Source: a virus (taxonomy: Duplodnaviria > Heunggongvirae > Uroviricota > Caudoviricetes). From it: a DNA stretch of 64,000 bases. Each line of letters opens with the position of its first letter. Positions within the stretch are counted from its first letter, which is position 1. A program made the translations under genes and the position numbers. This document shows positions 1,471 through 50,495 of this stretch, piece by piece. Location: IMG/VR virus record IMGVR_UViG_3300049049_000146, positions 67,216 to 131,215 of that record; one strand, 5' to 3'. The notes under the pieces were generated by a model that ran no database searches, had not been told where the DNA came from, and was given only the letters and a program-made list of their open reading frames with translations.

Positions 1471-2075
1471 TCTTCGACGTGCGTCTCGTTGAGTCCGGCC
1501 TCGTCATCCTCGCCGAAGAAGCTCGTCCTCACGAGATTCGCCATGAGCATTCCCATGTCGGAATCATCGTCGAGGATTACGAATCGGTCGACGATGTTGC
1601 CCTCGTCCATCTTCTTCCGGGCGACGTCGTCATTCCAGTCACGAATCCACCACCAGATCTCGTCGCCCCGGCACTCGTCGTTGGTCGTCTTGGACGGCGT
1701 CTTTGAGAGAAGCGTGAACTCCGCGCCCTTGCTCTGAAGCATGGCGCTCAACTCCCAAAGGTCCATGCCAATTCGCCACGAGGACGAAAGGACGACGACG
1801 CAGCCGGTCTCGTTGACGATGCGGTTGAGCCGCTTGATTCGCACAGGGTCCAGCATATTCACGTGCCAGTCCCAGCGCTCCTTGGCAACCTTCACAGGGT
1901 CGGCCTTCTCCCGAGCCTCCATCATCTCGGCAAGCTCGTCGAGCGTGAACGACTTCGGCCCCTCATCTGGCACTGCGTGCTGCTTGTCGGTCTTCTTCTG
2001 AGAAGCCACAATGAACTTCTGCGTATTGAGTACGCCATCGATGTCGAGGAACAGAACCTTCATGGCAGCCTCCAA
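1446..2075 (-). CDS. HAD-superfamily hydrolase/phosphatase
   Basis: 209 aa; N-terminal HAD motif I FLDIDGVLN (DxDG); SSSW motif II-like; preceded by the conserved motif and a GGAGG RBS. Confidence 0.6.
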   Translation of the reverse strand: MEAAMKVLFLDIDGVLNTQKFIVASQKKTDKQHAVPDEGPKSFTLDELAEMMEAREKADPVKVAKERWDWHVNMLDPVRIKRLNRIVNETGCVVVLSSSWRIGMDLWELSAMLQSKGAEFTLLSKTPSKTTNDECRGDEIWWWIRDWNDDVARKKMDEGNIVDRFVILDDDSDMGMLMANLVRTSFFGEDDEAGLNETHVEECIRRLNS

Positions 2076-2117
2076 ACGGAAAGAGGGACAGTCCAGCAGA
2101 GCCGAACCATCCCTCTT

Positions 2118-2136
2118 TACTATCTCCGGACTTTGG
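2118..2136 (-). promoter_or_regulatory. conserved intergenic motif copy 1 (CCAAAGTCCGGAGATAGTA on gene strand)
   Basis: 3 nt after the stop of 2140..3435 and ~40 nt upstream of the ATG at 2075; matches the consensus shared by 7 other copies. Confidence 0.5.
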
Positions 2137-2139
2137 CAG

Positions 2140-3435
2140 TTACTTCGCGTGCGCTGCTTGTACCGGTGTACGTTCCAGCTTCCACTTTTTGAATTCGACG
2201 TTTAGAGTCGGAAGCTCCCCTGTCTTGTTCTTCTGGTCGAAAAGCTGTTGCGCGACTCGGTTTACTGCCTCTGAACTAACCTTGAACGTAGGGTCAGTCT
2301 TCTTGCCCTCGTACGCGATCACACAAGCCTTCGTGAATTCGATTACATCGTAATCGCCGGGAGCGCGCTTTCCGGTGTCTTTGTCTACTTCACACACAAG
2401 ACATTCCGCCGCGTGAAGAAACAATACCTGACGCGCTCTTCCAGGATTATCAAGGAAAGAATCGAGGAACTTCTTACCCGTGCACGTAGTAGACGACGTC
2501 AGAATATCCAACAGCCACCTCGCAATTGCGTCTTCTTTGCACACGAGTTCATGGATGCTGTTGACGATTTCTTCGATTCGCTTATTCGTAGAGGTCCGCT
2601 TGTTCGTAGAAGGATCTCTTTCTTCTAACTTCGAGATGAGATCCGACAAACGATTCACGTAAAAAGGTGCTTCCAGAGCGGAAGGCGCCTTCTTCAAGAG
2701 AAGCTGACTACGCACGAAGTACAACAGGTACTTCAAGTGAGAAAGCTGGATGTCGCGCTCTCTTAGAGTCGAGAGAACATACTGCCGATCCGCTCTAAGC
2801 TTGTTCTCAGCGAGCTTGGCCAGCTTCATCTGGTGGTCTACCGATGGGGCTGCTTGCTCTTTTTGCTTTTCTTGCTCCTGCTCCTGCGCTTTTTTAGCCT
2901 TCGCCCGCTGGACGCGCACCTTGTGCTCTATAATTTGAGCCATTGAGCTGAGCAGTCGGACAGCGTCCATGTCTTCGCCGTACAAGTCTTCGCCGATCGT
3001 TTCAACATCGCGAAGCACCCACTCTTCATTACGGGTTTTCGTGATGTCGAATTCGACGACGACTCCAGATCTAACAGGCCGTAAGATATCTGCCGCCTGC
3101 TTGAGGTACTTACTGCTCAGGGGGAATCCGCACTCAGAGCAATACTGAGCGTTATCAAACACCTGGGTGTCACAAACGTAACACTTAGCCTGCTGAATCA
3201 AAGTCATCCGACGCCTCCTCCATTTACCAGTGAACTTCCCGAGCGGTTCGAAGTCGAACGAAGGTTCAGTCTCGTACCAGCGTACAAATTGTACTCGGAC
3301 GGTGTTCTCTGGCGTCTTTCCTCCATTAGGAGGAGGATGGGTCGCCAGCACCTGGCGAACTTTCTCCGCTAGAATGAATTCCTCGCCAGGGCTAATGATG
3401 TTCCGCAGGGCTTCGAGGTAATAACGCTCATGCAT
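2140..3435 (-). CDS. hypothetical protein with CxxC zinc ribbon
   Basis: 431 aa ORF with balanced composition; CYVCD...CSECG motif; coiled-coil KEQE region. Confidence 0.6.
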   Translation of the reverse strand: MHERYYLEALRNIISPGEEFILAEKVRQVLATHPPPNGGKTPENTVRVQFVRWYETEPSFDFEPLGKFTGKWRRRRMTLIQQAKCYVCDTQVFDNAQYCSECGFPLSSKYLKQAADILRPVRSGVVVEFDITKTRNEEWVLRDVETIGEDLYGEDMDAVRLLSSMAQIIEHKVRVQRAKAKKAQEQEQEKQKEQAAPSVDHQMKLAKLAENKLRADRQYVLSTLRERDIQLSHLKYLLYFVRSQLLLKKAPSALEAPFYVNRLSDLISKLEERDPSTNKRTSTNKRIEEIVNSIHELVCKEDAIARWLLDILTSSTTCTGKKFLDSFLDNPGRARQVLFLHAAECLVCEVDKDTGKRAPGDYDVIEFTKACVIAYEGKKTDPTFKVSSEAVNRVAQQLFDQKNKTGELPTLNVEFKKWKLERTPVQAAHAK

Positions 3436-8453: not shown

Positions 8454-9812
8454 ATGAGACTGACAGTTACAAACCTAACAAATTCGAGCATTTCGGTCGG
8501 TGGCCGCGTCGGCAAACTGCCCGCTGGTATTTCCACGACGACCACGTTGGATTTGACAGTTGACGAGCTTGAGAAGGTGCAGTCTCGTCTAGTAGCCTTG
8601 AAGGCTGCTGGTGTGATTCTTTTCACTGTGGCTGCAAATGCAGACACGAACGACAATCCTACCGAGGGCGTGACTGTCCAGTACATGCAGGACTACGTCA
8701 CAACGGCACTCGCGGGTGTAAGCGGGGGCGGAGGTGGCGGACCTACCTACATCGTTGGAAATTCGGCAGCAGGCGATACCTCCTCCAATTGTACGCACCT
8801 CGATTCCGGCAACGGAGACGCCCTCAGGACCGCTCTAGCTGCGGCAGGCGGCACCGGGGGCTCGGTGTTCGTTCGTCGCGGCACGTACACGCTCACGCAC
8901 GCTGGAGGAGCGACGGTAGTGCCAGGTAACGTAGACCTTATCGGAGAGGGTCAGGGAACCGTCCTCGCGCTACCCCGCAGTGGTGAAATCTTCTCACTCG
9001 ACATCAACGGCAGAGTTGAGAACTGCGCCATTCGGCAGACCGGCCAGCCTAACGGCGCGTTTGCATTCAGCACCAACCGATTCATCGAAATGCGAGGAGG
9101 TGCACGACTGAACAAGTGCCTTGTTGAAATCCTCGCAAACGGAGGAAGCGCGGGTAACTACGGCGGCTTCTACTCAATGGTCCGCATGTCGTCAGCCCTC
9201 GGCCTCGTGAGCAACTGCGTGTTCCGTGGCTATTCTTCGACGACTCTGGGTGCCGGCTTCGAGTGCTTGGGCGTCCAGGCTATCGGCGGATTCTGCGGTG
9301 TCGTTGATTCGACGTTCGGGGACACCGGCTTCAACGCATTCGATGTGCCCGTTGAACTTGGTGAAGCTTCGTACAACTACGCCAAGGGCTGCAACTTCGT
9401 CCGCACGACCATTCACGGCGTCCGCCTTGTGATGGTGTTCGACACGCAGGGTCAGCGTATCGAGGGATGCAACTTCGACGTACGAGGCGGAAACGGCGTG
9501 GGTATCGAATGGTTCGGCAACGGTGTGCTGCGCAACACGCTCATTCACGGAAACGTGATCTCTTGCGCAGCGACAGCGTCGCACGGAATCAACCTCTTCA
9601 GCACCTCGGGCACGAACGAAATCGACTTCCTCAGCATCCAGAACAACATGCTGGTTGGTGCTGGTGCGGGTATCGGAATCCGCCTCGCAGAGAGCGGAGG
9701 CGGACTCAACAGCAACGTCAATGAATCGCTGAACTCTGTCTACAACTTCGGCACGGCGCGAAGCATTGCTGCCACTGGCGGAGGTCTCACCCAGGTCGGC
9801 AATCTTCCCTGA
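8454..9812 (+). CDS. glycine-rich right-handed beta-helix (pectate-lyase-fold-like) protein; tail-fibre/depolymerase-like or moron
   Basis: 452 aa; the only credible plus-strand gene; GGAGGG RBS 7 nt before the ATG; repeated N/GC-x-F/I and IxN/IHGN PbH1-like beta-helix repeats; poly-Gly stretch. Confidence 0.6.
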   Translation: MRLTVTNLTNSSISVGGRVGKLPAGISTTTTLDLTVDELEKVQSRLVALKAAGVILFTVAANADTNDNPTEGVTVQYMQDYVTTALAGVSGGGGGGPTYIVGNSAAGDTSSNCTHLDSGNGDALRTALAAAGGTGGSVFVRRGTYTLTHAGGATVVPGNVDLIGEGQGTVLALPRSGEIFSLDINGRVENCAIRQTGQPNGAFAFSTNRFIEMRGGARLNKCLVEILANGGSAGNYGGFYSMVRMSSALGLVSNCVFRGYSSTTLGAGFECLGVQAIGGFCGVVDSTFGDTGFNAFDVPVELGEASYNYAKGCNFVRTTIHGVRLVMVFDTQGQRIEGCNFDVRGGNGVGIEWFGNGVLRNTLIHGNVISCAATASHGINLFSTSGTNEIDFLSIQNNMLVGAGAGIGIRLAESGGGLNSNVNESLNSVYNFGTARSIAATGGGLTQVGNLP

Positions 9813-9813
9813 G

Positions 9814-10512
9814 CTACTTCGCCCAGCGCTTGAACATCTCCACGACGGACTTGGCCCCGGAACGCTTGAGCGTCCCCTTGACGCGATTGAGTTCCTTCTC
9901 GGCCAGGTCCGTCAGCGTATGCTGCATCAGCTTTACCCCGGCGATGAATTCCTCGACATCTTCCTTGTTCTCTGAGGCGAAATAGATGACGCCGCCATCC
10001 CTCTCTGCCCTAAGGCCCGGCCCCGGAACACTGAAATCACCAGCCCGATCGTAGAACGAATCAAGGCTCTCTTCCTTGAAGACACGAATCGGCTTCTCAG
10101 AATAGAGACCGGACAGGTTGACGCAGGTGCCCCAAAGCTTGTCCGCCTTGTCCTGCCTAGCCTTCCTGCCTTTCTTGTAGAGCTTCTCGGCTTCGTATTC
10201 CTTCCGCTCACGGGTTCCATTCTTGTAGTAGACGTCCACTACAAAGATGTCGTACAGCGGAGCGAACGAGTCGCTGCCCGTGAAGTAGTCCTCCATCTTG
10301 AGGAGAGACCACTCGTCGTAATACGTAGGCGTAGGGGTACCCTGGTCCTCACGCCACTTGTGACTCCAGCGATGTTCCAGGCTCCCGACGATCGACTCTG
10401 CCTTGGCGTTCGCCTCCTCCGGCGTGTCCGCTTCAATACACAGGCAGTGACCGTACGTGTCGGTAACGTTGAACCGGCCGTTGGGATTGTTCTGATCGTA
10501 CGTGAAGAACAT
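9814..10512 (-). CDS. hypothetical protein
   Basis: 232 aa ORF; convergent with the plus gene, stops 1 nt apart. Confidence 0.55.
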   Translation of the reverse strand: MFFTYDQNNPNGRFNVTDTYGHCLCIEADTPEEANAKAESIVGSLEHRWSHKWREDQGTPTPTYYDEWSLLKMEDYFTGSDSFAPLYDIFVVDVYYKNGTRERKEYEAEKLYKKGRKARQDKADKLWGTCVNLSGLYSEKPIRVFKEESLDSFYDRAGDFSVPGPGLRAERDGGVIYFASENKEDVEEFIAGVKLMQHTLTDLAEKELNRVKGTLKRSGAKSVVEMFKRWAK

Positions 10513-10515
10513 GAG

Positions 10516-11679
10516 TCAGGTCTTTCCGGGTACTCGAATTGCGGGGACGTACGCCGCGTCCTCGGGGCCCTTCTGGTGCGGCTTCACCCAGGTAGACTTC
10601 ACCGCAATCCATTCGTCGGGGCGCTTCGGAGCGATGTGGCGCTGGAAGAGTTTGCGCAGGTAATCGTCTTCGATGTCAAGCAGGAAGATTTGGTACCCAC
10701 GCTTGCGCAGCTTCTCCTCGACCTTCGGAGGAATCGGGAGCGGCCCCCGCTGCACCTTGACCCGCTCGTGACCGCGCACGTCGAAGCGGTACGTGTAGCG
10801 GAACGAGGGGCCCGCTGCGGCGTTTCTCTCCTGCTCTTCGAGCACCTTACTCGACATACGAAGCACGTAATACGGCTTCGGCAGGAAAGTCATTCGGGCT
10901 TGCTTCGCCTTCTTCTGAAGGTCGCGGCGCTGCCCCGGCGTGTACGTGACTTCCTTGATGAATGTGCGGTACTGCTCCAGTACGTGCGCGAAGATCTGCA
11001 CCATCCAGGGCACGAGCGAATAGCTCCGAATCCAGTTGCCCTTGGTGCGAATGATCTCGGGGATGAGGGACGAGGAGCCGTCAGCTTGCTCGTATTCAAC
11101 AAGCTCGATGACCGTGCCGTCGTCCTTCTGCGTAATCACGTAGCCACGAACGACAGCGGCTACGATATCGGTTCGGAAGAATTGGCGGTAGTGCTCCATG
11201 CGAACCATGAAGTCCGACGCCGAGATATGAACTCCCTGACCTAGCCCGATGTACACAGTCTCGAAGGGCCAACGCTGCGGGAATTCGACGTGCTTGCACT
11301 CCTTGAGAATCTTAGCCATGTAGGCTTCGGCTTCTTCCTTAGGAGGAGCTTCGCTTCCCGCGGGCCGGTAACGATATCCGGCCAGCACTTCCGTCGTGTA
11401 CATCTCAGCCTGCCGGTACGCGTACAGGTACACGTGCGGCTCAAACACGAACAGGCGAGCATTCCACAGCAACGAGAATACCTCGCGCGTGAATGCTCGC
11501 CGCTGCTCGTCAGTTGCTTCGGCAGCAACCCTGCTGCCGTCGTCGTAGTTCAGGACAGGCTGAACATCGTCCCGCAACAGCTTCTCTTGATTCATCGTGC
11601 GATGAAGAGAAGCCATCGTGTGGAAGTAGTATTCGAGACTCTCCTTGGACTGGTCTCGACCGTACGTGATATCAACCAT
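10516..11679 (-). CDS. hypothetical protein
   Basis: 387 aa ORF, balanced composition. Confidence 0.6.
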   Translation of the reverse strand: MVDITYGRDQSKESLEYYFHTMASLHRTMNQEKLLRDDVQPVLNYDDGSRVAAEATDEQRRAFTREVFSLLWNARLFVFEPHVYLYAYRQAEMYTTEVLAGYRYRPAGSEAPPKEEAEAYMAKILKECKHVEFPQRWPFETVYIGLGQGVHISASDFMVRMEHYRQFFRTDIVAAVVRGYVITQKDDGTVIELVEYEQADGSSSLIPEIIRTKGNWIRSYSLVPWMVQIFAHVLEQYRTFIKEVTYTPGQRRDLQKKAKQARMTFLPKPYYVLRMSSKVLEEQERNAAAGPSFRYTYRFDVRGHERVKVQRGPLPIPPKVEEKLRKRGYQIFLLDIEDDYLRKLFQRHIAPKRPDEWIAVKSTWVKPHQKGPEDAAYVPAIRVPGKT

Positions 11680-31051: not shown

Positions 31052-32941
31052 TTAGCGGGTAGCCGGCTTACCGTTCTTATCTTCCTTGCGCACCGGGGCA
31101 GCAGCCGTCGGAGGCTCCGGAGCGAGAGCCGTGGTCGCGGCCTCCGTGAGTTGACGGACGACGCCCACGACCTGCTCCTTAGTTCCATCCGAGAGATTCT
31201 CCAGAAGCCCCTCGACCTGCGTCGCGAACTTCTGCCCGGAACCAAACGAACGAATCATCTCGTTCACCTGCTCGGGGGTGCCGTAGAGCTTCGCGTCGAT
31301 GCGCTGGAACATGGTCGCCTGGGCCTGTGCCATCGCAATGCGGACTTCCTTCTCCGCATTGACCTGGAGCTTCGCGATCTCGAAGTCCTGGGCCACCTTA
31401 CCATGCTTCTCGCGAGCCTCAAGCTCGGGCTTGATGACGGTCTCGACGCGCTCGCGCTCGACGGCAACCTCGGCCTTCTTCACCTCGATCGGCACCATGG
31501 CCTTTGCCATGTCACCGGCCGCACGCTGCTTCTCCGCCTCTGCGGCGGCTTCGGCGCCCTTGCGGACAGCCTCGGCCTCTGCGTCAGCCGCAGCCTTGCG
31601 GGCACGAGCAGCCGCCTCGATCTGGTACGACTCGGCGTCGGCCTGCTTCGAACGACGAAGGTAATCGCGCTCTGCCTCAGCCTGGGCCTCGACAATGCTC
31701 TTGGCCTTCGCACGCTCTGCCTCGGCCGTGACCTTGATCGTCTCGACCTCCTGCTGAGCCTTCTCGACCTCGGCCTCCTTTTGCGCGAGGAGGCGCTCCT
31801 TTTCGGCACGCTCGGCCTGCGCAGCAGCGACCGCAGCTTCCTTTTCCTGCTGGGTCACGAGAGTCGCCTGCTCGCGCTTCTCACGAGCAATTGCGACCTC
31901 ACGACTCGTCGCTTCATTTGCAAGCTGCACCGCCTGGGCCTTCTCCGCCTCGGCAAGTGCGAGCGCCTGCTGACGAGCGGTCTCCGCGACCTCCAGAGCC
32001 TTCGTCTTCTCGATGGCTGCGAGGTGCGTCTCGCGCTCCATCTCGATGACCTTCATCTGAGCATCGCGGTCAGCCTGGGCCTGAATGCGCTGGACTTCAG
32101 CATTCTGAAGGGCCATTGCCTCCTTCTCCTGCTGGTCGAGAGCCAGAATGCGCTTCTTATTCTCGACGTCCTGCTGCTTACGGCGCTCCTCACCGTCGCG
32201 GACGAGACGATTGCGTTCGGTCAAGCTCGACTCGGTGATTTCCGCGATCTTGCGGGCACCCTGAGCGTCGAAGATATTGTTGGTCTTCAGGAACTTCGGG
32301 TCCGTCTGGTCGAGGCTCGAAATCGTCACCGTCTCCAGGACGAGACCGTTGTTCTTGAGATCGTCCTGAAGAAGCTTCGTGACGTCCTCCAGGAACGAAT
32401 CACGTTCGCTATTCAGCGCCTCCAGAGACTTCGTGGCCGCAGCCGTACGAAGCGCAGAGACGAGCTTGTCTTCGACAAGCAACTTCACCTGCTCGGGGTT
32501 GTCCATTGCCTCACCGAGCGAACGAGCAGCCTGGAGAACCGCGTCCTCCTGCGGATTCACGCGAACGAAGAATTCGGCGCGAACGTCAGCACGCAGCTTG
32601 TCATGAGTGATGAGCGCATCCACGCCGGCACGCTGGACCTCCAGCTTGATCGTGCGCAGCGAGACGCGGGTCAACTCGTGGATGAACGGGATGATCACCG
32701 CGCCGCCATCCTGGATGACCTTAGCGCCGCCCTGACCCGTACGTACGAAAGCCTCCGACGCCTTCGTCTTCTGATAGAGACGAGTGAAGACGAATGCGAC
32801 ACCACTGAAGAGAATCAGCGCGACGCCCGAGCCGGTCAGACCAACCTGCGTTCCGGTACCCACCGGAATGCCGAGGATCTGAAGGACGATCGGTGTGGCA
32901 ACGAGCAGCACACCGAAGATGAATGCGATAAGAACTGCCAT
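31052..32941 (-). CDS. flotillin-like SPFH (band 7) protein
   Basis: 629 aa; N-terminal TM helix, SPFH core, long Ala/Glu-rich coiled coil (EA repeats) as in YqiK/FloT. Confidence 0.8.
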   Translation of the reverse strand: MAVLIAFIFGVLLVATPIVLQILGIPVGTGTQVGLTGSGVALILFSGVAFVFTRLYQKTKASEAFVRTGQGGAKVIQDGGAVIIPFIHELTRVSLRTIKLEVQRAGVDALITHDKLRADVRAEFFVRVNPQEDAVLQAARSLGEAMDNPEQVKLLVEDKLVSALRTAAATKSLEALNSERDSFLEDVTKLLQDDLKNNGLVLETVTISSLDQTDPKFLKTNNIFDAQGARKIAEITESSLTERNRLVRDGEERRKQQDVENKKRILALDQQEKEAMALQNAEVQRIQAQADRDAQMKVIEMERETHLAAIEKTKALEVAETARQQALALAEAEKAQAVQLANEATSREVAIAREKREQATLVTQQEKEAAVAAAQAERAEKERLLAQKEAEVEKAQQEVETIKVTAEAERAKAKSIVEAQAEAERDYLRRSKQADAESYQIEAAARARKAAADAEAEAVRKGAEAAAEAEKQRAAGDMAKAMVPIEVKKAEVAVERERVETVIKPELEAREKHGKVAQDFEIAKLQVNAEKEVRIAMAQAQATMFQRIDAKLYGTPEQVNEMIRSFGSGQKFATQVEGLLENLSDGTKEQVVGVVRQLTEAATTALAPEPPTAAAPVRKEDKNGKPATR

Positions 32942-32966
32942 GAGACTTTACCTTTCTATTGAGCTT

Positions 32967-33551
32967 TCAGGAGGGAAGCTGCTCCACCACAAAGGTGGAT
33001 TTCTCTTCGTCGAAATTGACGACCAGAACCTTTTCGCCCCGAGCGATTTCACCCGCTTCGGTCTTGGCAGGAATTCGGTGAAGCGAACCAGAAGCGTCTC
33101 GCACGTCCGCCGAGCCAGACGTAGGAGTAATGCGAGTAATCACAGTGGCTTCACGTCCAACCAAGTCGGACGACTTCTTGGTGTACGTCTCGACCGTGGG
33201 AATGAACCGGCCCACGATCCGAGCGAACATCGAAGTCGAGATCACAGAGAAGACAATCGCGAACACCAGGCTGTAGAACTCGATGCTGTCAATGAAGTGC
33301 TCGCCTACCATGACGAAGAGCACACCCGCCGCGCCGAAGGAGAGCAGGTAGCTCATCACCAAAATGGCAACAGGGGCCTTTCCTACGCCGAGGAGTGAAA
33401 GCATCCCTCCGTGATGGTCGTGATCGACATCCGGGTGCCCGTCCATGTCGAGGTCAACACCCAGCGCGCCCATCGCGGTCAGACCGACGAGGACAACCGC
33501 AAGAGCAATCGCGGTGTAGTAGAGATACACGACCCAGAGAACATCAGCCAT
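32967..33551 (-). CDS. NfeD-like membrane protein (flotillin partner)
   Basis: 194 aa; N-terminal multi-TM region plus C-terminal OB/beta-barrel-like segment; immediately upstream of the flotillin, as in yqiJ-yqiK/yuaF-floT operons. Confidence 0.7.
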   Translation of the reverse strand: MADVLWVVYLYYTAIALAVVLVGLTAMGALGVDLDMDGHPDVDHDHHGGMLSLLGVGKAPVAILVMSYLLSFGAAGVLFVMVGEHFIDSIEFYSLVFAIVFSVISTSMFARIVGRFIPTVETYTKKSSDLVGREATVITRITPTSGSADVRDASGSLHRIPAKTEAGEIARGEKVLVVNFDEEKSTFVVEQLPS

Positions 33552-33575
33552 CGATCTGCCCCTTGTGTTTACAGT

Positions 33576-33770
33576 TCATCTACAATCCTCACCGCAGTAG
33601 CAGAGCCATGGCCAGCGGTACATTGGGTGATACCAGCTTCGCTGGTAGCAAGTTTCCATGCACTCACGGCATGATTCAGTCATGCCCGAGGAATGCTCCC
33701 GCCATGCAGCAGGAGCTTCCTGATTCGTACAGCCCGCGGCTAAGCAGGCGATGAAGAAAAGGCGCTTCAT
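33576..33770 (-). CDS. small Cys-rich lipoprotein-like secreted protein
   Basis: 64 aa; lipobox-like LAAGC. Confidence 0.5.
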   Translation of the reverse strand: MKRLFFIACLAAGCTNQEAPAAWREHSSGMTESCRECMETCYQRSWYHPMYRWPWLCYCGEDCR

Positions 33771-33964
33771 TCGTAACGCTTACGAAGCTTGGCATCGTCA
33801 GTGAAGAACTCTCCGAGCCACTCGTGACGCATGCCGCCGTTGTGCGTCGTAACGATTCGACGTCCTATCGTTCCCTCATACTCCACGAGTACACCAGGTA
33901 CCCATGAGCCCGCAACTTCAACGTAGACGTTTTCGCCCTTTTTGTAGTTCACGTTACGATTCAC
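33767..33964 (-). CDS. hypothetical protein
   Basis: 65 aa ORF. Confidence 0.45.
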   Translation of the reverse strand: MNRNVNYKKGENVYVEVAGSWVPGVLVEYEGTIGRRIVTTHNGGMRHEWLGEFFTDDAKLRKRYE

Positions 33965-34767
33965 GAATTATCTCCATCATCGATGTCAATCGTCTTCGGC
34001 AGTTCCACCTGGCCGAGAATGATCGGCTCTCCCGGCTCTACGCTAGGAAAAACAATCTGGGCCTCGACGTCGTCTCCCCGCGGCTCTGCCACCACGAAGA
34101 TTTCTGCCTGGCTCGAACCAGGAAGCGGGCGGAGATTGTCCATGATGAAAGCGGGCAGCTTGGGCTTCGGCTCAGGCCCCGCTCCCAGCCATTCGCGCAA
34201 CTGAGCACGGTCCATGTTCGGCTGGCTCTGCATCGAGTCGATGATATCGGGCGGCGCCGCTGCAATGATGTTCCTCATCGCATCTTCAATCGTGGCCTGT
34301 GCGATGGAACGATGGATGAAATTCTCTTCGCCGTCTGCTCCGTCGTGCAGGTCAACGAGTTCATTCATCGACCACACCACGCCCGTATCGACACCCTCGA
34401 TGAATGAATCCATCAGTGCCTGCGTCTGCTTTTCCTCTTCAGCGCGCTCCGCCTCTCTGAGAGCAGGCATGCGCCGAGCGTGCTCGATTTCCCAGCGGGC
34501 ACCAGTCCAGGCAGATTCGCCAGGCCAGAACGATTCCATCTTGTTGAGAAGCGCTTCGGCCTCGTCGTACTTCTCGTCCTCGATGAGACGCGCAATAGCG
34601 TCGTTGTCCGTCCACGATTCCGTGGCGTAAGCCAACTCGCTGAGCGCCCAACGGACACGTCGCTTGAGCCTATGGCTGAGCTTCGTGCGGTCGAATGCCG
34701 GGTCAGGATACCTGCGAATGAGATTCAGCAGGAAGTAAACAGCCGTATCGTACATCACTTCTCGCAA
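33961..34767 (-). CDS. hypothetical protein
   Basis: 268 aa ORF. Confidence 0.55.
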   Translation of the reverse strand: MREVMYDTAVYFLLNLIRRYPDPAFDRTKLSHRLKRRVRWALSELAYATESWTDNDAIARLIEDEKYDEAEALLNKMESFWPGESAWTGARWEIEHARRMPALREAERAEEEKQTQALMDSFIEGVDTGVVWSMNELVDLHDGADGEENFIHRSIAQATIEDAMRNIIAAAPPDIIDSMQSQPNMDRAQLREWLGAGPEPKPKLPAFIMDNLRPLPGSSQAEIFVVAEPRGDDVEAQIVFPSVEPGEPIILGQVELPKTIDIDDGDNS

Positions 34768-35405
34768 TCTTCAGAGTGCTGATTTCCGGCGACGCACATG
34801 CCATAACAGCAAGGCTCCTCAGCGCTCTTCGAACTCACGCTGTGGCCCATGGCGCGAGAATTCATGAACTCGATGAATGCCTCTTCGAGCGCGGCCTGTT
34901 CGTAGGTACGGCCATTCTTGTTCGGCTGCCGGTGATTTCCGTAGAGCACCGCAAGAGAGGCGGTCTTCGCTGCCTTGCGTTCTTGCGGAGTTACTTCCTC
35001 CGCCGCCTTGTTGAACATCCTCGCAGCATTCTCGCGATGGATGTCGCCGCCGTCGAAGCCCGCCTTGAAGTAGAAAACGCGCGGCTTCGTCTTGCCCCGC
35101 TGCGTGCGATCAATGGCACGCAGGACGTCCAGGCCCCTCGCTAGATCGGCGTCACACTGAGGACACGACGCATCTCGGAACATGTCCTTAGCGGCGCACG
35201 GGAAATGGGCGGCGGACCTGTCGGCGGGAGTCGTGACGTACTGCGGCTCGTAGCGTCCGACGAACTGATTCTCGTACTCCGTCTTGAAGACGTACTTCTT
35301 CTCGACGGGAGCCTCGTACGCTCGGCACTTCGGATTCGTGCACCCCTCCGAACTCATGAGGAGGGTCAAGCGACAATCAGAATTGCAGTACAGACAGGTG
35401 GCCAT
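34755..35405 (-). CDS. protein containing a family-A DNA polymerase O-helix (motif B) segment fused to an N-terminal Cys-rich region (fragment, pseudogene or split gene)
   Basis: 216 aa; DIHRENAARMFNKAAEEVTPQERKAAKTASLAVLYG aligns without gaps to E. coli Pol I [36 protein letters not shown]; no motif A or motif C in this or neighbouring ORFs. Confidence 0.55.
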   Translation of the reverse strand: MATCLYCNSDCRLTLLMSSEGCTNPKCRAYEAPVEKKYVFKTEYENQFVGRYEPQYVTTPADRSAAHFPCAAKDMFRDASCPQCDADLARGLDVLRAIDRTQRGKTKPRVFYFKAGFDGGDIHRENAARMFNKAAEEVTPQERKAAKTASLAVLYGNHRQPNKNGRTYEQAALEEAFIEFMNSRAMGHSVSSKSAEEPCCYGMCVAGNQHSEDCEK

Positions 35406-35757
35406 TAGTGATTTCCTTCTTCAGCCAAGCACGAAAGCGCATGAATATCGTCGCGTATTCACCGCAACACGCGCAAACGTGCCATTCTTCGTAATTCCTA
35501 CCCAAATGGAGAATCGCATCACCGTAGATGCGAACACGCTTGATTGCAATGTGGTTGTGCTTGCACACAGGTCGCGACGGTTTACGGTAGGGGCTCAAGG
35601 GATTCCCTTCTCCTTGAACCACTCTAACGCGCGGTCCAAAGCACATTGGAATTGTTTGAAGTCTAACCCGTCGTAATCTCGAATCCCGCATCTCGCACAG
35701 AACTTCGGGGACTTCACCCTGAAATCCTCGGGCTCGAAGTACGTCAATTCGAACCAA
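35377..35757 (-). CDS. hypothetical Cys/His-rich protein (possible HNH-like; frame uncertain)
   Basis: 126 aa; CKHNH...HVCACCGEY; overlaps 35595..35891 in another frame. Confidence 0.35.
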   Translation of the reverse strand: MVRIDVLRARGFQGEVPEVLCEMRDSRLRRVRLQTIPMCFGPRVRVVQGEGNPLSPYRKPSRPVCKHNHIAIKRVRIYGDAILHLGRNYEEWHVCACCGEYATIFMRFRAWLKKEITNGHLSVLQF

Positions 35758-35891
35758 TCGTGGTCGAACCTAGCGCACACGTGCCGCCACAGCCAATGCT
35801 CGCGCTGGGGCTGAAACGGACCGTCAGGGGTTCGGTACGTCGTTCCGCGCTTTCGCGCCAAGCTCTGCCTCGATGAGTGAGAAAAGCTCAT
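35595..35891 (-). CDS. hypothetical Cys-rich protein (frame uncertain)
   Basis: 98 aa; overlaps 35377..35757 by about 160 nt. Confidence 0.35.
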   Translation of the reverse strand: MSFSHSSRQSLARKRGTTYRTPDGPFQPQREHWLWRHVCARFDHDWFELTYFEPEDFRVKSPKFCARCGIRDYDGLDFKQFQCALDRALEWFKEKGIP

Positions 35892-36288
35892 CTCCCGCCT
35901 GTTCGATCTTCTGGCACTCAGGACACCACGAGGGCAGGTCGCCGTCTTCCTCGTGGCCTACAGGACACTTCGGCGTGTACCGGAATCGCTCCGCAGCTTC
36001 AAAGAGACGATAGACGGCCTCGTACTTGTCCTCAGCCTCCTGAAAGTGCGACTGCACGTACCCGCTGAACTCCAGCTTCTCGGCCTCTGCGTATTTACAG
36101 GACTTGTTCGAGCAGTCAGCACTGTCGAAAATGCCCGTGTACCCACAAGGGCTGCCGCACGCGATGCAAGTATGCTTATACGCCATCTTCGCGCTCCCCG
36201 TGCACGACGTCCCAAGCATCGTCGAAGGCCCCGTCGACACCGAGGCAGTGGTGCAGTCCGCTCGCGTCGAATTCGTCTTCGAATTCAC
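35824..36288 (-). CDS. hypothetical Cys-rich zinc-binding protein
   Basis: 154 aa; multiple CxxC. Confidence 0.45.
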   Translation of the reverse strand: MNSKTNSTRADCTTASVSTGPSTMLGTSCTGSAKMAYKHTCIACGSPCGYTGIFDSADCSNKSCKYAEAEKLEFSGYVQSHFQEAEDKYEAVYRLFEAAERFRYTPKCPVGHEEDGDLPSWCPECQKIEQAGDELFSLIEAELGAKARNDVPNP

Positions 36289-36394
36289 GAATCAGGTGCT
36301 CGTAGATTCGCTGACGAGCGTCGTGCTCCACGACATTGTTGTGCACAGCCCAGACGACACGCTCCATCACAGAGGAGCCAGTAGACCAACTCAT
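36176..36394 (-). CDS. hypothetical protein
   Basis: Start at MSWSTG; the track's N-terminal extension is an Arg/Ser-rich frame. Confidence 0.4.
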   Translation of the reverse strand: MSWSTGSSVMERVVWAVHNNVVEHDARQRIYEHLIREFEDEFDASGLHHCLGVDGAFDDAWDVVHGEREDGV

Positions 36395-36395
36395 G

Positions 36396-36665
36396 TTAAT
36401 CTCCCGTGAAGATGTCGAACATGCGGTCGATATCGAACGACTCTTCGTCACCGGATTCGATCTTCGTCGGCGTGACAACCGCCCACGCAACGAAGGTCCC
36501 GTCGTCATCCAGACGAACGCTCAGACGTCTCTTCTCGGCCGCCGCCTCGATAAGAATCACTGCGCCGCGAAAGCCGGTGCTCTCGCCAGAGAATACGTCA
36601 CCGTCGTAATTCCTCTTGGCGAGAGCAGCGCGGAACTTCTCTTCCCACTCTTCGATGAAGCTCAC
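36396..36665 (-). CDS. hypothetical protein
   Basis: 89 aa ORF. Confidence 0.45.
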   Translation of the reverse strand: MSFIEEWEEKFRAALAKRNYDGDVFSGESTGFRGAVILIEAAAEKRRLSVRLDDDGTFVAWAVVTPTKIESGDEESFDIDRMFDIFTGD

Positions 36666-38059
36666 TCTTCCTCCCGGAAGCGCTTACCCACAGGGAAGCG
36701 CGGCACGCCATCCTTGGTCTTGTTCTGGTAGCAGACCGTCAGAATCTTGCCCTGCCAGAGACTGTGGTCCTCGAAGAATTCCTTGAGGCGGTCGAGTGAC
36801 CCATCCATCTTGGCCTTGAAGAGCTTCTCGTCCGGCGTCCTACAGATGAACGCAGCCACGTGCCCCATGAGCTTTCCGCGGCCTTCCTCGAAGTCGACGA
36901 TGGGGAACTCCTCGTCGAGGAATTCCTTGACCTTCAGGAGGTCGTAGCTGCGCTTGTACTCGTACATGCCGTTGGCATTACGAACCATCGCGCCCTCGTA
37001 ACCCTGGCGGAGATACTCCGTGAAGATTTCGACAAGCTCGTCTTCCGACTCAGCCTTCTTATTCTTCACGAGCTTGAACGGATGCGGCGCGTCAGCGAAC
37101 AATTCCTTCAGGTACTTGTATCGCTTGATGAACGGGACGCCCTCGATGACCGCATCGAACACGTGGTACTCGATTACCTCGTGGCCATCACCCGGCTTCT
37201 TCGACCGGCAGAGCGACATGATGCGCTCGAAATCCGTGGCGAGCGTATGAACGTATGCCTCACCGTCGAAGATGTGATTCCCTTCAGGGAACTTCTCCTC
37301 GAACGCACGAGCAATGTGCGGAAGGCTGGTGACCGGCTTGCGGTTACGCGTCCAGAGCTTGCAGACGCCATCATTGATCGTCGCCACCATGCGCATGCCG
37401 TCGAGCTTTTTGCTGACGAGGCAGGGGTACTTGATCTTGTGGCCGTGCTCGGAGAACTTGTGGGCGAGCATCGGAGAGATTCCTCCCTCGACGAACCGCT
37501 CGTCCGCCTCTCCCGCCGTGGCCTTTTCCGGGTCCTCGACGTAGAGCTTGATTCTCAGCTGCTTCTCCCAGCGAGCCTTTGCTTCTGCAATCGCCTGCTG
37601 TTCAGGAGTCGTCGCATTGACCTTGCCGAGATTCTTTCCGGCCTTGATCACGTCCTCGGTCGTTTGCTTTTTGCCGTCGACCTGGCCGTGAATGGTACGA
37701 ATCGTCGTACCCTCAACCTCGATCTTCCATTCCTGTAACGTGCCCTTTGTGTTCTTCTTGTAGAGCACGGGGAATTCAGTCTTCATCGAGTCTTCCTCAT
37801 TCGCGATTCGTAAGAGAACATCGGCGTGGCAGGGGAGCGGGGCGCACCAACACAGGAGGTCACGCCCTTTTAACTCCGCTCGGATCTTGCGCATCAGGAG
37901 TGGACGTGTCCTGACCCACTCCTCGTATTTACGGATTACCTCGGAACGTAGCTGGCCTGGCTGCAACTCGAACGGGTTTCCAAATGGCGAGGGCCTCCCG
38001 ACATATACAGCGTCAGGAGGCCACACGTTACCCGCGCGTCTGTTGTAGACCTTGGGCAT
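36662..38059 (-). CDS. ATP-dependent DNA ligase with N-terminal DUF4326-like domain
   Basis: 465 aa; KLDGMR adenylation motif I; C-terminal OB-fold motif ...GVPRFPVGKRFREEE; N-terminal YVGRPSPFGNPF (DUF4326 signature). Confidence 0.85.
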   Translation of the reverse strand: MPKVYNRRAGNVWPPDAVYVGRPSPFGNPFELQPGQLRSEVIRKYEEWVRTRPLLMRKIRAELKGRDLLCWCAPLPCHADVLLRIANEEDSMKTEFPVLYKKNTKGTLQEWKIEVEGTTIRTIHGQVDGKKQTTEDVIKAGKNLGKVNATTPEQQAIAEAKARWEKQLRIKLYVEDPEKATAGEADERFVEGGISPMLAHKFSEHGHKIKYPCLVSKKLDGMRMVATINDGVCKLWTRNRKPVTSLPHIARAFEEKFPEGNHIFDGEAYVHTLATDFERIMSLCRSKKPGDGHEVIEYHVFDAVIEGVPFIKRYKYLKELFADAPHPFKLVKNKKAESEDELVEIFTEYLRQGYEGAMVRNANGMYEYKRSYDLLKVKEFLDEEFPIVDFEEGRGKLMGHVAAFICRTPDEKLFKAKMDGSLDRLKEFFEDHSLWQGKILTVCYQNKTKDGVPRFPVGKRFREEE

Positions 38060-38068
38060 TAGCCCGTG

Positions 38069-38611
38069 TCACCGAAAGATCATCTGCCATTGATTCGTGT
38101 ACACGACGGCCCGATGACCAGGAGGGACCAATTCAGCGCCCTGACTAGCCTTGTACCAAGGGAGAATAGGCTCCTCCCCGTGGTCCGCGCCATAGAACTC
38201 ACCAGGAGTACAGGCAGCGAAAATGCGCCCCTGCTTTTGCGTCTCTGCTGCACGTCGAAGAAGTGACGCTTCGATAGCGTCCAGGCGCGTCTCGTAGCTT
38301 CGGACGATGTCGTCCACCACTTCCAACTCTCGGTCAAGAGAGAAGGTGACGAAGACGCTCATGTGGAACCGAGGAACCTCGGCACCCAAGCCTTCAACAG
38401 CGTCCGAGAGTCGCACGTCACTCGTGACGTAAAGACTCGGGTCACTGATGGGCCCTGCGTAACCAAGGACCCTATTCATCGTCTCGCTGCGGCTCATGTG
38501 AGCTTCGATCGCTCGGTGCATTCTGGACTTCCAGTCCTCCTCACCGAACGTCGGAATCGAGGCAGCGACCGGAAGGACTACCGCTGAATGAATGATTTCT
38601 CTGCGCTTCAT
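38069..38611 (-). CDS. hypothetical protein
   Basis: 180 aa ORF. Confidence 0.5.
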   Translation of the reverse strand: MKRREIIHSAVVLPVAASIPTFGEEDWKSRMHRAIEAHMSRSETMNRVLGYAGPISDPSLYVTSDVRLSDAVEGLGAEVPRFHMSVFVTFSLDRELEVVDDIVRSYETRLDAIEASLLRRAAETQKQGRIFAACTPGEFYGADHGEEPILPWYKASQGAELVPPGHRAVVYTNQWQMIFR

Positions 38612-38820
38612 GACGTCTCCTTGACCCAGTTCGCATTCTCCAGGTCGGCCGTATTCGCCAGGTCGCCAGCCTCGTCGAAACGGCCCTTGCCGGTCTCAGC
38701 GTCAACGACGCGCACATCGAAATGCTCCCCGTTCTTGGTGCATTCCACGATGCGCATCTTGCCCATGTCACTGACGAGAATCGTTCCGACCTCGTACTTC
38801 GGTGCCTTCTTCTTGCTCAT
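38608..38820 (-). CDS. hypothetical protein
   Basis: 70 aa ORF. Confidence 0.45.
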   Translation of the reverse strand: MSKKKAPKYEVGTILVSDMGKMRIVECTKNGEHFDVRVVDAETGKGRFDEAGDLANTADLENANWVKETS

Positions 38821-39188
38821 GCTGCCTCTACCTTCTCAACCCGTCCCGTCTCATTGCAGTTCGTGCAGGGGCGTTCGTCTCGATGGTAATCACCCTCGAT
38901 CTCGCCCTTCCCCTCACACTTCGGGCACGGGTCCGTATCGTTAAGCCATCGCTGGTATTCCAGCAAGGCTTCGCGCTCCTTATCAAGCGCGACGGGGTCG
39001 ATTCCCAGGAAGCGACCGATGAGCCGTTCCTTCGAATAGGCCACGACTTCGAGGTTGTATCCACGCTCGGAATAGGCCGACAGCTGAAGGCCCTCTTCCT
39101 CAATCCAGTCCAGGAACTCGCTCAGGAGTAGGGACTTGTTTCGGTCGATGCGAAGCTGTTCGAGCAGGGGAGTTTCAGGTCGCTTCAT
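38817..39188 (-). CDS. hypothetical protein with C-terminal zinc ribbon
   Basis: 123 aa; CPKCEGKG...CTNCNETG. Confidence 0.5.
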   Translation of the reverse strand: MKRPETPLLEQLRIDRNKSLLLSEFLDWIEEEGLQLSAYSERGYNLEVVAYSKERLIGRFLGIDPVALDKEREALLEYQRWLNDTDPCPKCEGKGEIEGDYHRDERPCTNCNETGRVEKVEAA

Positions 39189-49073: not shown

Positions 49074-49257
49074 TCACTTTCAGCGCGCCGATCACCGCAT
49101 ACGAAAGGGCGGTGTTGAACACCGTAATGTTTCGCTCCCATGCACCATCAGGAGCGACCCAGTAAGAAACGAAACACCACGTGATGAAGAACAGACAGAT
49201 GTAGAACACACGCTTACGGACAAATTGCCGCAGCTTCATTCGCCAGCTGAGCTTCAT
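49000..49257 (-). CDS. small membrane protein
   Basis: Start at MKLSWRMKL; two hydrophobic helices. Confidence 0.4.
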   Translation of the reverse strand: MKLSWRMKLRQFVRKRVFYICLFFITWCFVSYWVAPDGAWERNITVFNTALSYAVIGALKVIARWPDDETYRNLHDSARQADRLA

Positions 49258-50495
49258 TGCGGGTGAACCTCGTGCTGCGGCCACACCTGACCCGCGTGGT
49301 TGACCTTGATGATCCACTCCTCACGCGGCTCGAATTGCTGGTAATCAGCGAGGCTGCTCGGCGAATACGTCCAGGTGTCCTGCTCTTCGACGAACACCAC
49401 CTGGTACGATTCAGCCTGGAGAATTCGCCAGTTCGGGGGCGAAGCATGAAGCCGAGTGCCCCAATACGTTTCCCGTCCGGTACCCGACGTCACCTCAGTA
49501 TCCCGAACAATCCACCGGTAGTAATCGTAGGTACACCAGTCATCGTAAACAGGACACTGATCGTAACACGTACTACAGCGTTCCTCCGAGCAGGTATCGC
49601 AGCATGTACTGCACGATTCCTCTTCGTGACAGGACGAATACCCGTTGCCGAGATCCGAACAGCTTTCGTGCGTCACGCAGTTGCAATCGTGGCATCGGCA
49701 GTCGTACGAGACCTGACGGCAATTGCAGTCGTGAGGATTGCAATCCCGGGTGCCGTGCTGCCGACGCTCACAGTGCACGTTGAAGGCGTCGATCGGATGG
49801 CCCCATCCCGAGCCGTGCTGGACCGTACGCTCCTCTAGCGTCCTCGTGTACTGCCACGCCGTGGACTGCACGAACGTGTCTTCTTCGTGCGGCACGCAGA
49901 GCCAGACGAAGAACATCACGAAGGCGGTGCACGCAGCGAGGATAGCGATGCCGAGTGCAATCGCTCCGGCCCTTCCGGGATTTCTCGGTGCGTCAATGGG
50001 TCGACCACCGACATACAGCTGAACCGGAGGACGAGGAACAGCCTCATCCGCCATCTTCTTGATCTTCTCCTTGCGACGGAGAAGGTCCTCGCGCGTCGGG
50101 CTCGTACGGTATCCCGCGGGTTCCGGGGGAGGAGCCGGTTCGGGAATTACCGGAGGCGGCGAATCGAGCGAAATCGCATTCGACGGATTCGGGTCGTGCA
50201 TCGCCTCCTTACGGGGCGCACCGCACTGCTCACACGTCTTACGTGAGAGGTCCCGATTGTCCCACGAACAGTAGCTGCAAGTCCAGTTTGCACCAGCACG
50301 TGCCTGCTTCAACTGCTCCGGGTTCGTCACCGTCGGACGATTCGACGGAAGCTCGTATTTCTCGTGGCGGTCTTTTGGCTCGCCACACGACTGACAAGTC
50401 ATGTGACGACCAAGATTCGATGCTCGGCACGCCGAACACGTCCAAGTGTTCTCGACGATCCGAGAAGGACCCTTCCTCACAACTCGTCTGGTCAT
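49254..50495 (-). CDS. membrane protein with two N-terminal RanBP2-type zinc fingers and a Cys/His/Asp-rich extracytoplasmic domain
   Basis: 413 aa; WTCSACRASNLGRHMTCQSCG and WTCSYCSWDNRDLSRKTCEQCG (W-x-C-x2-C-x3-N-x6-C-x2-C); Pro-rich linker; TM helix AIALGIAILAACTAFVMFFVWLCV; C-terminal CxxC/CH/CD-dense segment; GGAGGGAG RBS and motif copy 7 directly upstream. Confidence 0.6.
   Translation of the reverse strand: MTRRVVRKGPSRIVENTWTCSACRASNLGRHMTCQSCGEPKDRHEKYELPSNRPTVTNPEQLKQARAGANWTCSYCSWDNRDLSRKTCEQCGAPRKEAMHDPNPSNAISLDSPPPVIPEPAPPPEPAGYRTSPTREDLLRRKEKIKKMADEAVPRPPVQLYVGGRPIDAPRNPGRAGAIALGIAILAACTAFVMFFVWLCVPHEEDTFVQSTAWQYTRTLEERTVQHGSGWGHPIDAFNVHCERRQHGTRDCNPHDCNCRQVSYDCRCHDCNCVTHESCSDLGNGYSSCHEEESCSTCCDTCSEERCSTCYDQCPVYDDWCTYDYYRWIVRDTEVTSGTGRETYWGTRLHASPPNWRILQAESYQVVFVEEQDTWTYSPSSLADYQQFEPREEWIIKVNHAGQVWPQHEVHPQ

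Follow-up and report, generated by a model that had tools for sequence, protein, structure and literature searches.

A probable stand-alone, non-catalytic protein built around a domesticated family A DNA polymerase fingers tip in a phage-like genome

Gene B encodes a 216-amino-acid (aa) protein in a 64-kb stretch of viral DNA (positions 67,216 to 131,215 of IMG/VR virus record IMGVR_UViG_3300049049_000146), referred to throughout as the window, which belongs to a source contig of ~424 kb, ~360 kb of which lay outside the searches. Within this small protein, a segment of the fingers subdomain of family A DNA polymerases (PolA) is flanked by Cys-rich modules and separated from every catalytic part of a polymerase. 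We consider it probable, at about 0.6, that gene B functions as a stand-alone protein without catalytic activity, organized around a domesticated PolA fingers tip. The novelty lies in a fingers-only PolA derivative, an unnamed zinc-module family to which it is related, and an unexplained, ultra-conserved C-terminal tail. Among the scenarios raised by a first-pass annotation made from the sequence alone, the third, a fingers fragment recruited into a new protein, is the one borne out, as a family was found that shares both the Cys module and the fingers motifs and lacks the catalytic motif C.

Gene B is composed, in order, of an N-terminal Cys module, a degenerate pre-motif A, a PolA fingers-tip segment carrying motif B, and a Cys/His tail (Table 1). 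The length and the opening residues, MATCLYCNSDC, agree with the first-pass description; the stop codon, placed there ~45 aa past the YG pair of motif B, in fact follows it by 60 residues. The public JGI gene call for this protein (P0001, 200 aa) begins at M17 and cuts away the conserved N-module, and the ATG at 35405, with its AAGGAA ribosome-binding site, is the better start. The N-module is near-invariant in the orthologs P0002 and P0003, occupies the N-terminus of every member of the long family described below, and presumably binds metal. Further downstream, GRYEPQYVTTPAD falls in the TGRLSS..PN.SN.P column block of the long-family alignment, and YEPQ.VTT.AD is invariant across the three gene B orthologs. 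When gene B was examined for TGRLSS, only this degenerate stretch aligned, an intact copy being present in a separate gene, gene C.

The fingers-tip segment is recognized by profile and pairwise comparisons. Pfam DNA_pol_A aligns residues 118-158 with profile positions 182-222 of 381 (E 5e-7; 29.4 bits, under the gathering score of 34.3 bits), and the PHROG DNA-polymerase family phrog_17 matches the same stretch (E 2e-8). E. coli Pol I residues 729-767 align with gene B without gaps at 41% identity, 15 of the 36 motif B positions being identical, and gene B residues 118-184 align with Taq 634-704 (E 8e-5); among PDB chains, a KlenTaq variant matches best (residues 117-184, E 9e-6). The best phage matches, PolA proteins of Herelleviridae (31-35% identity), start at residue 95 or 119 and extend to 210 or 216. 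The Pfam, PHROG, E. coli Pol I and Taq alignments confirm that the motif B/O-helix segment first noticed by eye is genuine, and the similarity reaches well past the ~35 residues to which the first-pass annotation had allowed it might be confined.

The correspondence extends to individual residues. In the alignment, D121-I122-H123, R143 and K147 of gene B occupy the positions of Taq D637-I638-H639, R659 and K663, and L151, Y155 and G156 those of F667, Y671 and G672, with identical spacing. R143 and K147 are invariant in gene B orthologs, and the H, R, K and Y-G positions are kept in most sequences of a fragment panel. We take the segment from 117 to 184 to comprise helices N, O, O1 and O2. The triphosphate is gripped by Lys663, Arg659 and His639 in ternary complexes of KlenTaq, where Tyr671 stacks on the terminal base pair and the catalytic Asp610 and Asp785 belong to the palm; a partially closed state with a nucleotide on the O-helix is reported as well (PMC7155079). 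Given these roles and the residue correspondence, the fragment retains the nucleotide-gripping face of the enzyme and none of its chemistry.

Gene B is maintained by selection and is no pseudogene. It is found in synteny, as a protein of 169-222 aa, in three diverged lineages (the window, L002 and L007), the orthologs being P0002 (222 aa, L002; 55% identity by BLAST) and P0003 (169 aa, L007; 46%), and the shared gene order is ligase, small open reading frames (ORFs), gene B, and a conserved gene of ~250-300 aa. The ratio of nonsynonymous to synonymous substitution rates (dN/dS) against L002 is 0.14 overall, with values of 0.095 for the N-module, 0.13 for the PolA part and 0.04 for the tail, in the company of neighboring genes at 0.07-0.15; against L007 it is 0.20. 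On these values, the decayed pseudogene proposed in the first-pass annotation is rejected.

The remaining parts of a polymerase were sought throughout the window. A PolA-domain hidden Markov model (HMM), built from the last 600 residues of 23 diverse sequences and spanning exonuclease and thumb, was searched against every stop-to-stop ORF of at least 30 aa, and matched just gene B (E 3e-9, motif B) and gene C (TGRLSS). Motif A (DYSQIELR type, with the catalytic Asp) is absent from gene B and from these ORFs, motif C (QVHDE, with the second catalytic Asp; HMM position ~525) gave no match in the window or in related loci, and no thumb or 3'-5' exonuclease piece was matched by the HMM in the 64 kb. 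Searching the window by tblastn with full E. coli PolA and with the PolA of Staphylococcus phage SEP1 returned nothing else credible besides gene B. The earlier observation that motifs A and C are missing nearby is thereby extended to all 64 kb. The sole other PolA exon-like piece is the separately conserved, 111-aa gene C, 8 kb away, and neither tblastn nor the PolA HMM revealed collinear, adjacent exons in the window that would complete a polymerase.

Signs of interruption by a mobile element were likewise missing. Rfam detected no group I or group II intron, either at gathering thresholds on the 64 kb or at E<=1 on 33500..38500, its output consisting of a tRNA and one chance-level snoRNA match. 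No HNH, GIY-YIG or LAGLIDADG domain was found in the flanking ORFs with Pfam (E<=1), PHROGs (E<=0.1) or NCBIfam, and two phage HNH proteins used as queries had no homolog in the window; the HNH-like motifs attributed to the neighboring ORFs in the first reading were therefore not substantiated. Pfam gave no Hint/intein family at E<=1, a search made with no dedicated intein profile, and visual inspection showed no C-terminal HN plus nucleophile in the N-module and no resemblance of the 18-residue tail to intein block A. Together with gene B's own ribosome-binding site, start and stop in three lineages, the negative intron, endonuclease and exon searches speak against the intron- or homing-endonuclease-split polymerase that had been suggested. 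Scanning 34500..36800 for promoters and terminators gave nothing exceeding shuffled expectation. No PADLOC defense component matched genes A, B or C (gene A being a neighboring paralog) or the long-family members, and membership in a defense system was dropped for that reason.

An exhaustive profile search connected gene B to a wider group of phage proteins. It returned 281 matches at E<1e-3, in which proteins of 365-559 aa rank directly behind the orthologs. These proteins, here called the long family (P0006-P0012, P0018, P0073, P0088, P0121 and P0154-P0159), begin with the same Cys module (H.CLYC.SPCE.TLA.SSEGCTNP.C.AY), often followed by a second Cys cluster and then by the pre-motif A TGRLSS..PN.SN.P. 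Motif A (DYAELEWR) occurs in two members and motif B in about half, and the proteins carry a well-conserved C-terminal domain of ~155 residues (RWPNTMRV...LGVLSLV.V...A.YDY...GR.R). The long-family profile aligns with Taq 564-762, from TATGRLSS via GYVETLFGRRRY to PVQGTAADLMK (E 4e-15), a stretch that represents essentially the entire fingers subdomain, and among true polymerases it comes closest to bacterial Pol I proteins that have 5'-3' exonuclease domains. Nothing matches the final ~155 positions of the profile, and motif C is found neither in the long-family proteins nor in 20-kb loci around the relatives. A PolA palm was considered for the C-terminal domain and rejected on finding neither a sequence nor a fold match. 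In an AlphaFold model of P0006 computed from a 21-sequence alignment (mean predicted local distance difference test score, pLDDT, 72), the N-module forms a small beta ribbon (pLDDT 83-90), the O-helix region is helical, and the C-terminal domain is alpha/beta (pLDDT >90) with no confident fold match.

As judged from sequence, gene B appears to be a short form of this family that keeps the N-module, a degenerate pre-motif A and motif B and has a different ending. A local family HMM matched exactly three window genes, namely B (positions 4-173), A and C, and the long-family C-terminal domain was matched by it nowhere in the window. Gene B and the long forms share the N-module (50-75% identical over ~30 residues), the order of PolA motifs, the R, K and YG of motif B, and a phage-like replication or repair setting. 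They differ in size (346-559 aa for the long family), in the TGRLSS element, which is degenerate in gene B, and in the Cys/His tail that stands in gene B in place of the ~155-residue domain. Their surroundings differ too: gene B has a ligase and no helicase in its vicinity, and the long forms are neighbors of a RecD2-type helicase or GyrB.

The long family is rare, comprising ~13 clusters at 90% identity from metagenomic contigs only (<=195 kb), and is unnamed in the sources. One of its contigs is an IMG/VR viral genome, and one locus encodes a large terminase and a giant fused RNA polymerase. Three contigs present the order dCTP deaminase, ThyX, ..., split RecD2-type helicase, HNH gene and family member; in another, the long-family gene adjoins GyrB. 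The long-family gene is the fastest-evolving of its replication module (28-37% identity versus 78-82% for the helicase), and its N-module is still 72-77% identical. The HNH-type gene is 73-81% identical across the three phage contigs, no better conserved than the helicase, and therefore gives no sign of recent homing. HNH genes were also rejected as a consistent partner of fingertip proteins, given this level of conservation and the lack of relationship between the long-family HNH gene and that of Pectobacterium phage PPWS2 discussed below. P0160, considered as an intermediate form, was set aside because it is an ordinary Pol I in duplicate, probably produced by chimeric assembly.

The tail of gene B has a distribution of its own. 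The motif EPCCYGMCVAGNQHS[ED]DC (18 residues, one E/D change) occurs in four proteins besides gene B: P0002; P0004, a NaMN/NMN-adenylyltransferase-like protein on a 143-kb contig of a metagenome-assembled genome; P0005, an unrelated protein of 235 aa; and P0090, a 239-aa protein from a 1.3-kb contig, in which the motif is internal (residues 139-156) and is followed by a gene-C-like TGRLRSDRPNYSN segment. Between the five loci, the codons for this motif differ at 7-12 of 18 third positions, synonymous change is near saturation, and the DNA on either side shows no relationship; the differing codons and unrelated flanks indicate selection on the peptide and not a recent transfer of DNA. The tail had no family match in any library searched, and its back-translated pattern had no match in viral, genome and metagenome contig collections, which do not contain this lineage. 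The spacing CC-x3-C-x5-H-x3-C suggests a metal knuckle or a docking tag.

Gene C was located by tblastn with long-family members and E. coli PolA 662-680 as queries. Its residues 77-96 read VRTGRLDSSKPNFSNTPKAD, with the TGRL..PKAD core (residues 79-96) encoded at 26542..26595, and it is 96% identical to its L002 ortholog (dN/dS 0.03). Genes B and C are both conserved in the window and in L002. The pre-motif A is the sole recognizable feature of gene C, and a mechanical ORF list masks the gene behind a longer, spurious plus-strand ORF. By alignment, the Arg of this motif lies at the position of Taq R573, a residue that forms a hydrogen bond with the ribose of the incoming deoxynucleoside triphosphate (dNTP) (PMC7155079).

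Closer to gene B, the paralog gene A has an ortholog in L007 and is represented in L002 by its C-terminal 74 aa only (dN/dS 0.07). The small ORF between genes A and B has a dN/dS of 0.15, and neither an HNH domain nor any other was recognized in it with Pfam, PHROGs or NCBIfam. An overlapping 126-aa ORF (35377..35757), previously listed among the neighboring ORFs, is missing from the syntenic relative and is probably spurious. Immediately 5' of gene B lies a spacer of ~190 nucleotides (35406..35594) that is absent in L002, where the preceding ORF abuts gene B; the spacer holds just non-conserved ORFs, and no consensus promoter or terminator was found in it. On the other side, the gene B TGA overlaps the downstream ATG by one base (TGATG), and the two genes likewise abut in L002 and L007. 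The downstream gene was tried as the missing C-terminal domain of the long family and rejected (hhalign probability 0.3%).

Table 1 Features of the window and of related loci (positions refer to the window unless a locus is named)
Feature	Position	Strand	Basis or remark
Gene B, 216 aa	34755..35405 (TGA stop at 34755..34757)	-	ORF and translation, syntenic homologs, dN/dS, family HMM E 1e-24
Shine-Dalgarno-like AAGGAA, 7 nucleotides 5' of ATG at 35405	35413..35418	-	direct sequence reading
Gene B N-module, residues 1-33, C-x2-C-x3-C-x10-C-x4-C (MATCLYCNSDCRLTLLMSSEGCTNPKCRAYEAP), zinc-ribbon-like	35307..35405	-	alignments
Gene B residues 50-62, GRYEPQYVTTPAD, degenerate pre-motif A (TGRLSS..PN.SN.P..D)	35220..35258	-	alignment alone
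Gene B fingers-tip segment, residues 117-184 (Taq 634-704)	34854..35057	-	Pfam, PHROG, tblastn, PDB-chain and HMM matches
Gene B tail core, residues 197-214, EPCCYGMCVAGNQHSEDC (CC-x3-C-x5-H-x3-C)	34764..34817	-	18 residues, recurring in four other proteins
Tail motif across loci	window 34764..34817; L002 10613..10666; L005 ~10616..10669; L008 ~1870..1923; L011 (P0090 139-156)	- (window)	
Downstream gene, 264 aa	33961..34755	-	follows gene B in three lineages
Gene A, ~120 aa, paralog with N-module (MAYKHTCIACGSPCGYTGIFDSADCSNKSCKY) and second Cys cluster	35824..36186	-	motif scan; family HMM E 3e-9, profile 1-72
Small Cys/His-containing ORF between genes A and B, <=98 aa, start uncertain	35595..35891	-	57% identical to L002 9723..10001
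Gene C, 111 aa, PolA pre-motif A near C-terminus	26494..26829	-	tblastn, family HMM E 1e-7, PolA HMM E 0.005
Long-family genes	L009 8618..10024; L010 10001..11680; L013 10001..11293; L014 3290..4420		
HNH-type gene between helicase and long-family gene	L013 9537..10004; L009 7816..8277; L010 ~9522..9989		phrog_3377, E 1e-39
PPWS2 ORF5, 60 aa, annotated 'DNA polymerase'	L015 (LC375533.1) 1964..2146		far-left tiny-gene cluster
ATP-dependent DNA ligase, N-terminal DUF4326 (phrog_464)	36662..38059	-	96% identical to L002 ortholog
123-aa CxxCxGxG-type zinc-finger protein, upstream of ligase	38817..39188	-	
SPFH/Band7 protein (629 aa, long coiled-coil-like Ala/Glu/Lys-rich tail) and YqiJ/NfeD-like membrane protein	31052..33551	-	98% and 92% identical to L002
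Single tRNA gene	25208..25282	-	Rfam tRNA, 50.7 bits
413-aa protein: two zinc-ribbon-like motifs, Pro-rich linker, predicted membrane segment, extremely Cys/His/Asp-rich stretch (CNPHDCNCRQVSYDCRCHDCNCVTHESC...)	49254..50495	-	no family match
452-aa Gly/Asn/Thr-rich protein, beta-helix-like appearance, opposite strand	8454..9812	+	no Pfam/PHROG match

Phages repeatedly carry stand-alone PolA fingertip proteins, a recurrence as yet unexplained. The exhaustive profile search and a viral structure library both yielded complete ORFs of 53-130 aa, many in all and many of them in metagenomes, that contain little beyond DIH...VTPEQR..AK......YG, some with a remnant of motif A. One of these mini-ORFs is identical to ORF5 (BBD74637.1) of Pectobacterium phage PPWS2, a podovirus in which ORF5 lies 10 kb from an intact 780-aa polymerase, with an HNH gene ~900 bp upstream. 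ORF5 shares 21 of 36 motif B positions with E. coli Pol I, compared with 30% identity over 27 residues with the polymerase of its own phage. A second cultured example, sought with the mini-ORF P0081, gave no match. The PHROG family phrog_38792, annotated "unknown function", matches gene B residues 121-163 weakly (E 0.004), gene B having ~150 further residues in other modules. Like gene B, the mini-ORFs (phrog_38792, PPWS2 ORF5 and BFVD entries from Pectobacterium, Acinetobacter and Maribacter phages) are encoded apart from a polymerase; unlike it, they are 53-130 aa long and have no Cys modules. They are a precedent for gene B and not an explanation of it, since no function has been reported for them. 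The searchable PolA literature contains no description of stand-alone fingertip proteins: a 2023 reclassification of PolA dropped sequences shorter than 350 aa and reports an exonuclease/polymerase split only (PMC10201439), and a 2026 bacterial survey discarded truncated sequences.

Taken as a functional protein, gene B by itself would be unable to polymerize DNA. Its retained O-helix face has probably kept the ability to bind a nucleoside triphosphate, pyrophosphate or the primer end of a DNA, and the two Cys-rich ends may serve as metal-stabilized handles for nucleic acid or partners. The protein could then act as an accessory or regulatory factor in a DNA repair and nucleotide-metabolism module that includes the ligase. 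Likely partners would be the translationally coupled downstream protein and gene C, whose TGRLSS would supply a complementary contact to the dNTP ribose; gene C is put forward because it is co-conserved with gene B and because P0090 fuses the tail with a gene-C-like segment.

Several observations weigh against this interpretation. P0003 has no tail and carries YT in place of YG, and about half of the long family is devoid of motif B altogether, so the O-helix is not essential to the family's core function. The middle of gene B evolves fast (55% identity versus 70-98% in most neighbors), a pattern for which an arms-race or decoy role would account no less well than a housekeeping accessory one. 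AlphaFold prediction of gene B from three sequences was unusable (pLDDT 34). The mechanism outlined above is one we infer from retained residues and genomic context, and the link between genes B and C comes from their co-occurrence and the single 239-aa protein P0090. A palm acting in trans is possible as well, the window covering 64 kb of the ~424-kb contig.

The main rival portrays gene B as a Pol I mimic or decoy aimed at the host or a competitor, which would titrate a factor, poison host Pol I or blunt a PolA-linked defense, and would take no part in the phage's own replication. It draws on PPWS2 ORF5, which is nearer to E. coli Pol I than to its own phage polymerase and sits in the far-left tiny-gene cluster, where such phages usually place host-takeover genes. 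The long-family profile is also nearest to bacterial Pol I with 5'-3' exonuclease, and no genes in their modules evolve faster than gene B and the long-family genes, whose termini are conserved. We nevertheless regard such a role as unlikely: no target is known, mimicry by an isolated helical hairpin is speculative, and there is neither a PADLOC match nor a known anti-defense annotation. The gene B neighborhood is one of repair and nucleotide metabolism and not obviously an early region, and the nearest phage matches of gene B are Herelleviridae PolAs. A split family A polymerase encoded by several genes is less probable still. Gene B would contribute motif B, gene C the TGRLSS, and the remainder, encoded elsewhere in the ~424-kb genome, would join them non-covalently, perhaps through the Cys-rich ends. 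Two strongly conserved window genes do carry complementary dNTP-contacting motifs, split polymerases have precedents (PMC10201439, PMC7824862, PMC6892783), and most of the source genome lies beyond the search. Against this, searches of the 64 kb and of the 20-kb relative loci down to 30-aa ORFs gave no fragment of motif A or C, even the complete long forms have no motif C and mostly no motif A, the pre-motif A of gene B is degenerate, the gene order is not collinear with PolA, and no intein/Hint domain was detected at E<=1. The fingers tip is, moreover, an insertion inside the palm fold, and no polymerase known to us receives it in trans.

Very improbable, in our judgment, is a functionless polA exon remnant that hitch-hiked with a since-lost homing endonuclease or intron. 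Motif B does adjoin a known site of intron/HNH insertion in Herelleviridae polymerase genes: the SEP1 polymerase is a joined coding sequence with an internal HNH gene, and the gene B match begins 44 residues into the frame of the second exon. HNH genes lie directly 5' of the long-family genes in three contigs, and another lies ~900 bp upstream of PPWS2 ORF5. These two HNH genes come from unrelated families, however, and the one adjoining the long family does not exceed the helicase in conservation; the window contains no endonuclease or intron. The fragment is instead embedded in a conserved multi-module protein under purifying selection, in the PolA part (dN/dS 0.13) as in the whole gene over three lineages. 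Returning to gene B as a domesticated, functional protein, a broader version can be sketched, which we offer as a doubtful conjecture. Phages would repeatedly have excised the Pol I fingertip to make small effectors, and genes B and C would form a kit, joined via the Cys5 module and a tail docking tag also borne by unrelated nucleotide-handling enzymes, that assembles into a palm-less complex binding dNTPs or primer ends and that senses or sequesters nucleotides or mimics host Pol I.

Comparison with known systems sets gene B apart from each of them. With family A polymerases (E. coli Pol I/Klenow, Taq/KlenTaq; PF00476), it shares the D-I-H and the spacing of the motif B R, K, Y and G, but it has no motif A, motif C, thumb or exonuclease, Leu replaces F667/F762, and its Cys-rich flanking modules are absent from the bacterial-type Pol I sequences inspected. 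The interrupted PolA of Herelleviridae, such as that of Staphylococcus phage SEP1, provides the best phage matches and is interrupted just upstream of motif B; its exons, however, are adjacent, collinear and jointly complete, whereas the gene B locus has no intron RNA, endonuclease or other exon. Split polymerases also encode modules as separate phage genes, as in the exonuclease/polymerase split of T7-like PolA (PMC10201439) and, in jumbo phages, split Pol III alpha (PMC7824862) and split PolB with an intein (PMC6892783). Those polymerases are cut between whole domains and keep all catalytic motifs, whereas here the fingers motifs only are present and the unsplit relatives have no motif C. 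As a conceptual analogy, Pol epsilon has an inactivated PolB module, a polymerase-derived module selected after catalytic loss, which keeps the whole fold (PMC2669801); gene B keeps a subdomain fused to unrelated modules.

The wider window has 58% GC and consists of densely packed small genes, mostly on the minus strand and nearly all ORFans. The exact gene B protein is recorded on a 423,825-bp JGI contig (P0001), its closest relative occurs on contigs of <=848 kb, and relatives close to the window region sit on contigs of 0.2-0.85 Mb; an element of this class would presumably rank among the largest phage-like genomes that we know of. No capsid, terminase or other hallmark virion gene was found in the 64 kb and no near-identical DNA among GenBank phages, and the source is treated here, without proof, as a very large phage-like element. 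The separate DNA ligase noted in the first reading 1.3 kb upstream is indeed present, as an ATP-dependent enzyme (Table 1). Other recognizable genes encode histidine phosphatase, MazG-like, VWA, GmrSD_N and HAD/DHHA1 proteins, and the pairing of SPFH/Band7 and YqiJ/NfeD-like proteins is unusual for a phage-like genome. The zinc-finger domain of the 123-aa protein recurs at the C-terminus of an ORF at L013 11296..12093 (31% identity, E 3e-10), 3' of the long-family gene, a common domain that hints at a distant relationship between the window module and the L013 long-family module.

For annotation, the gene B locus should be labeled neither DNA polymerase nor pseudogene. Surveys discard short PolA matches as fragments, and gene B shows that at least some of them are real, selected genes; the PPWS2 mini-ORF offers a culturable system. 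The tail is conserved as a peptide in proteins that are unrelated and genomes that have diverged, and in very large phages it could be the mark of a common partner, cofactor or localization route. Should the fingers tip function apart from a polymerase, it would constitute a minimal natural module for binding nucleotides or primer ends, and gene B, if this reading is true, would be a family A, subdomain-only addition to the polymerase-derived proteins that have no catalysis.

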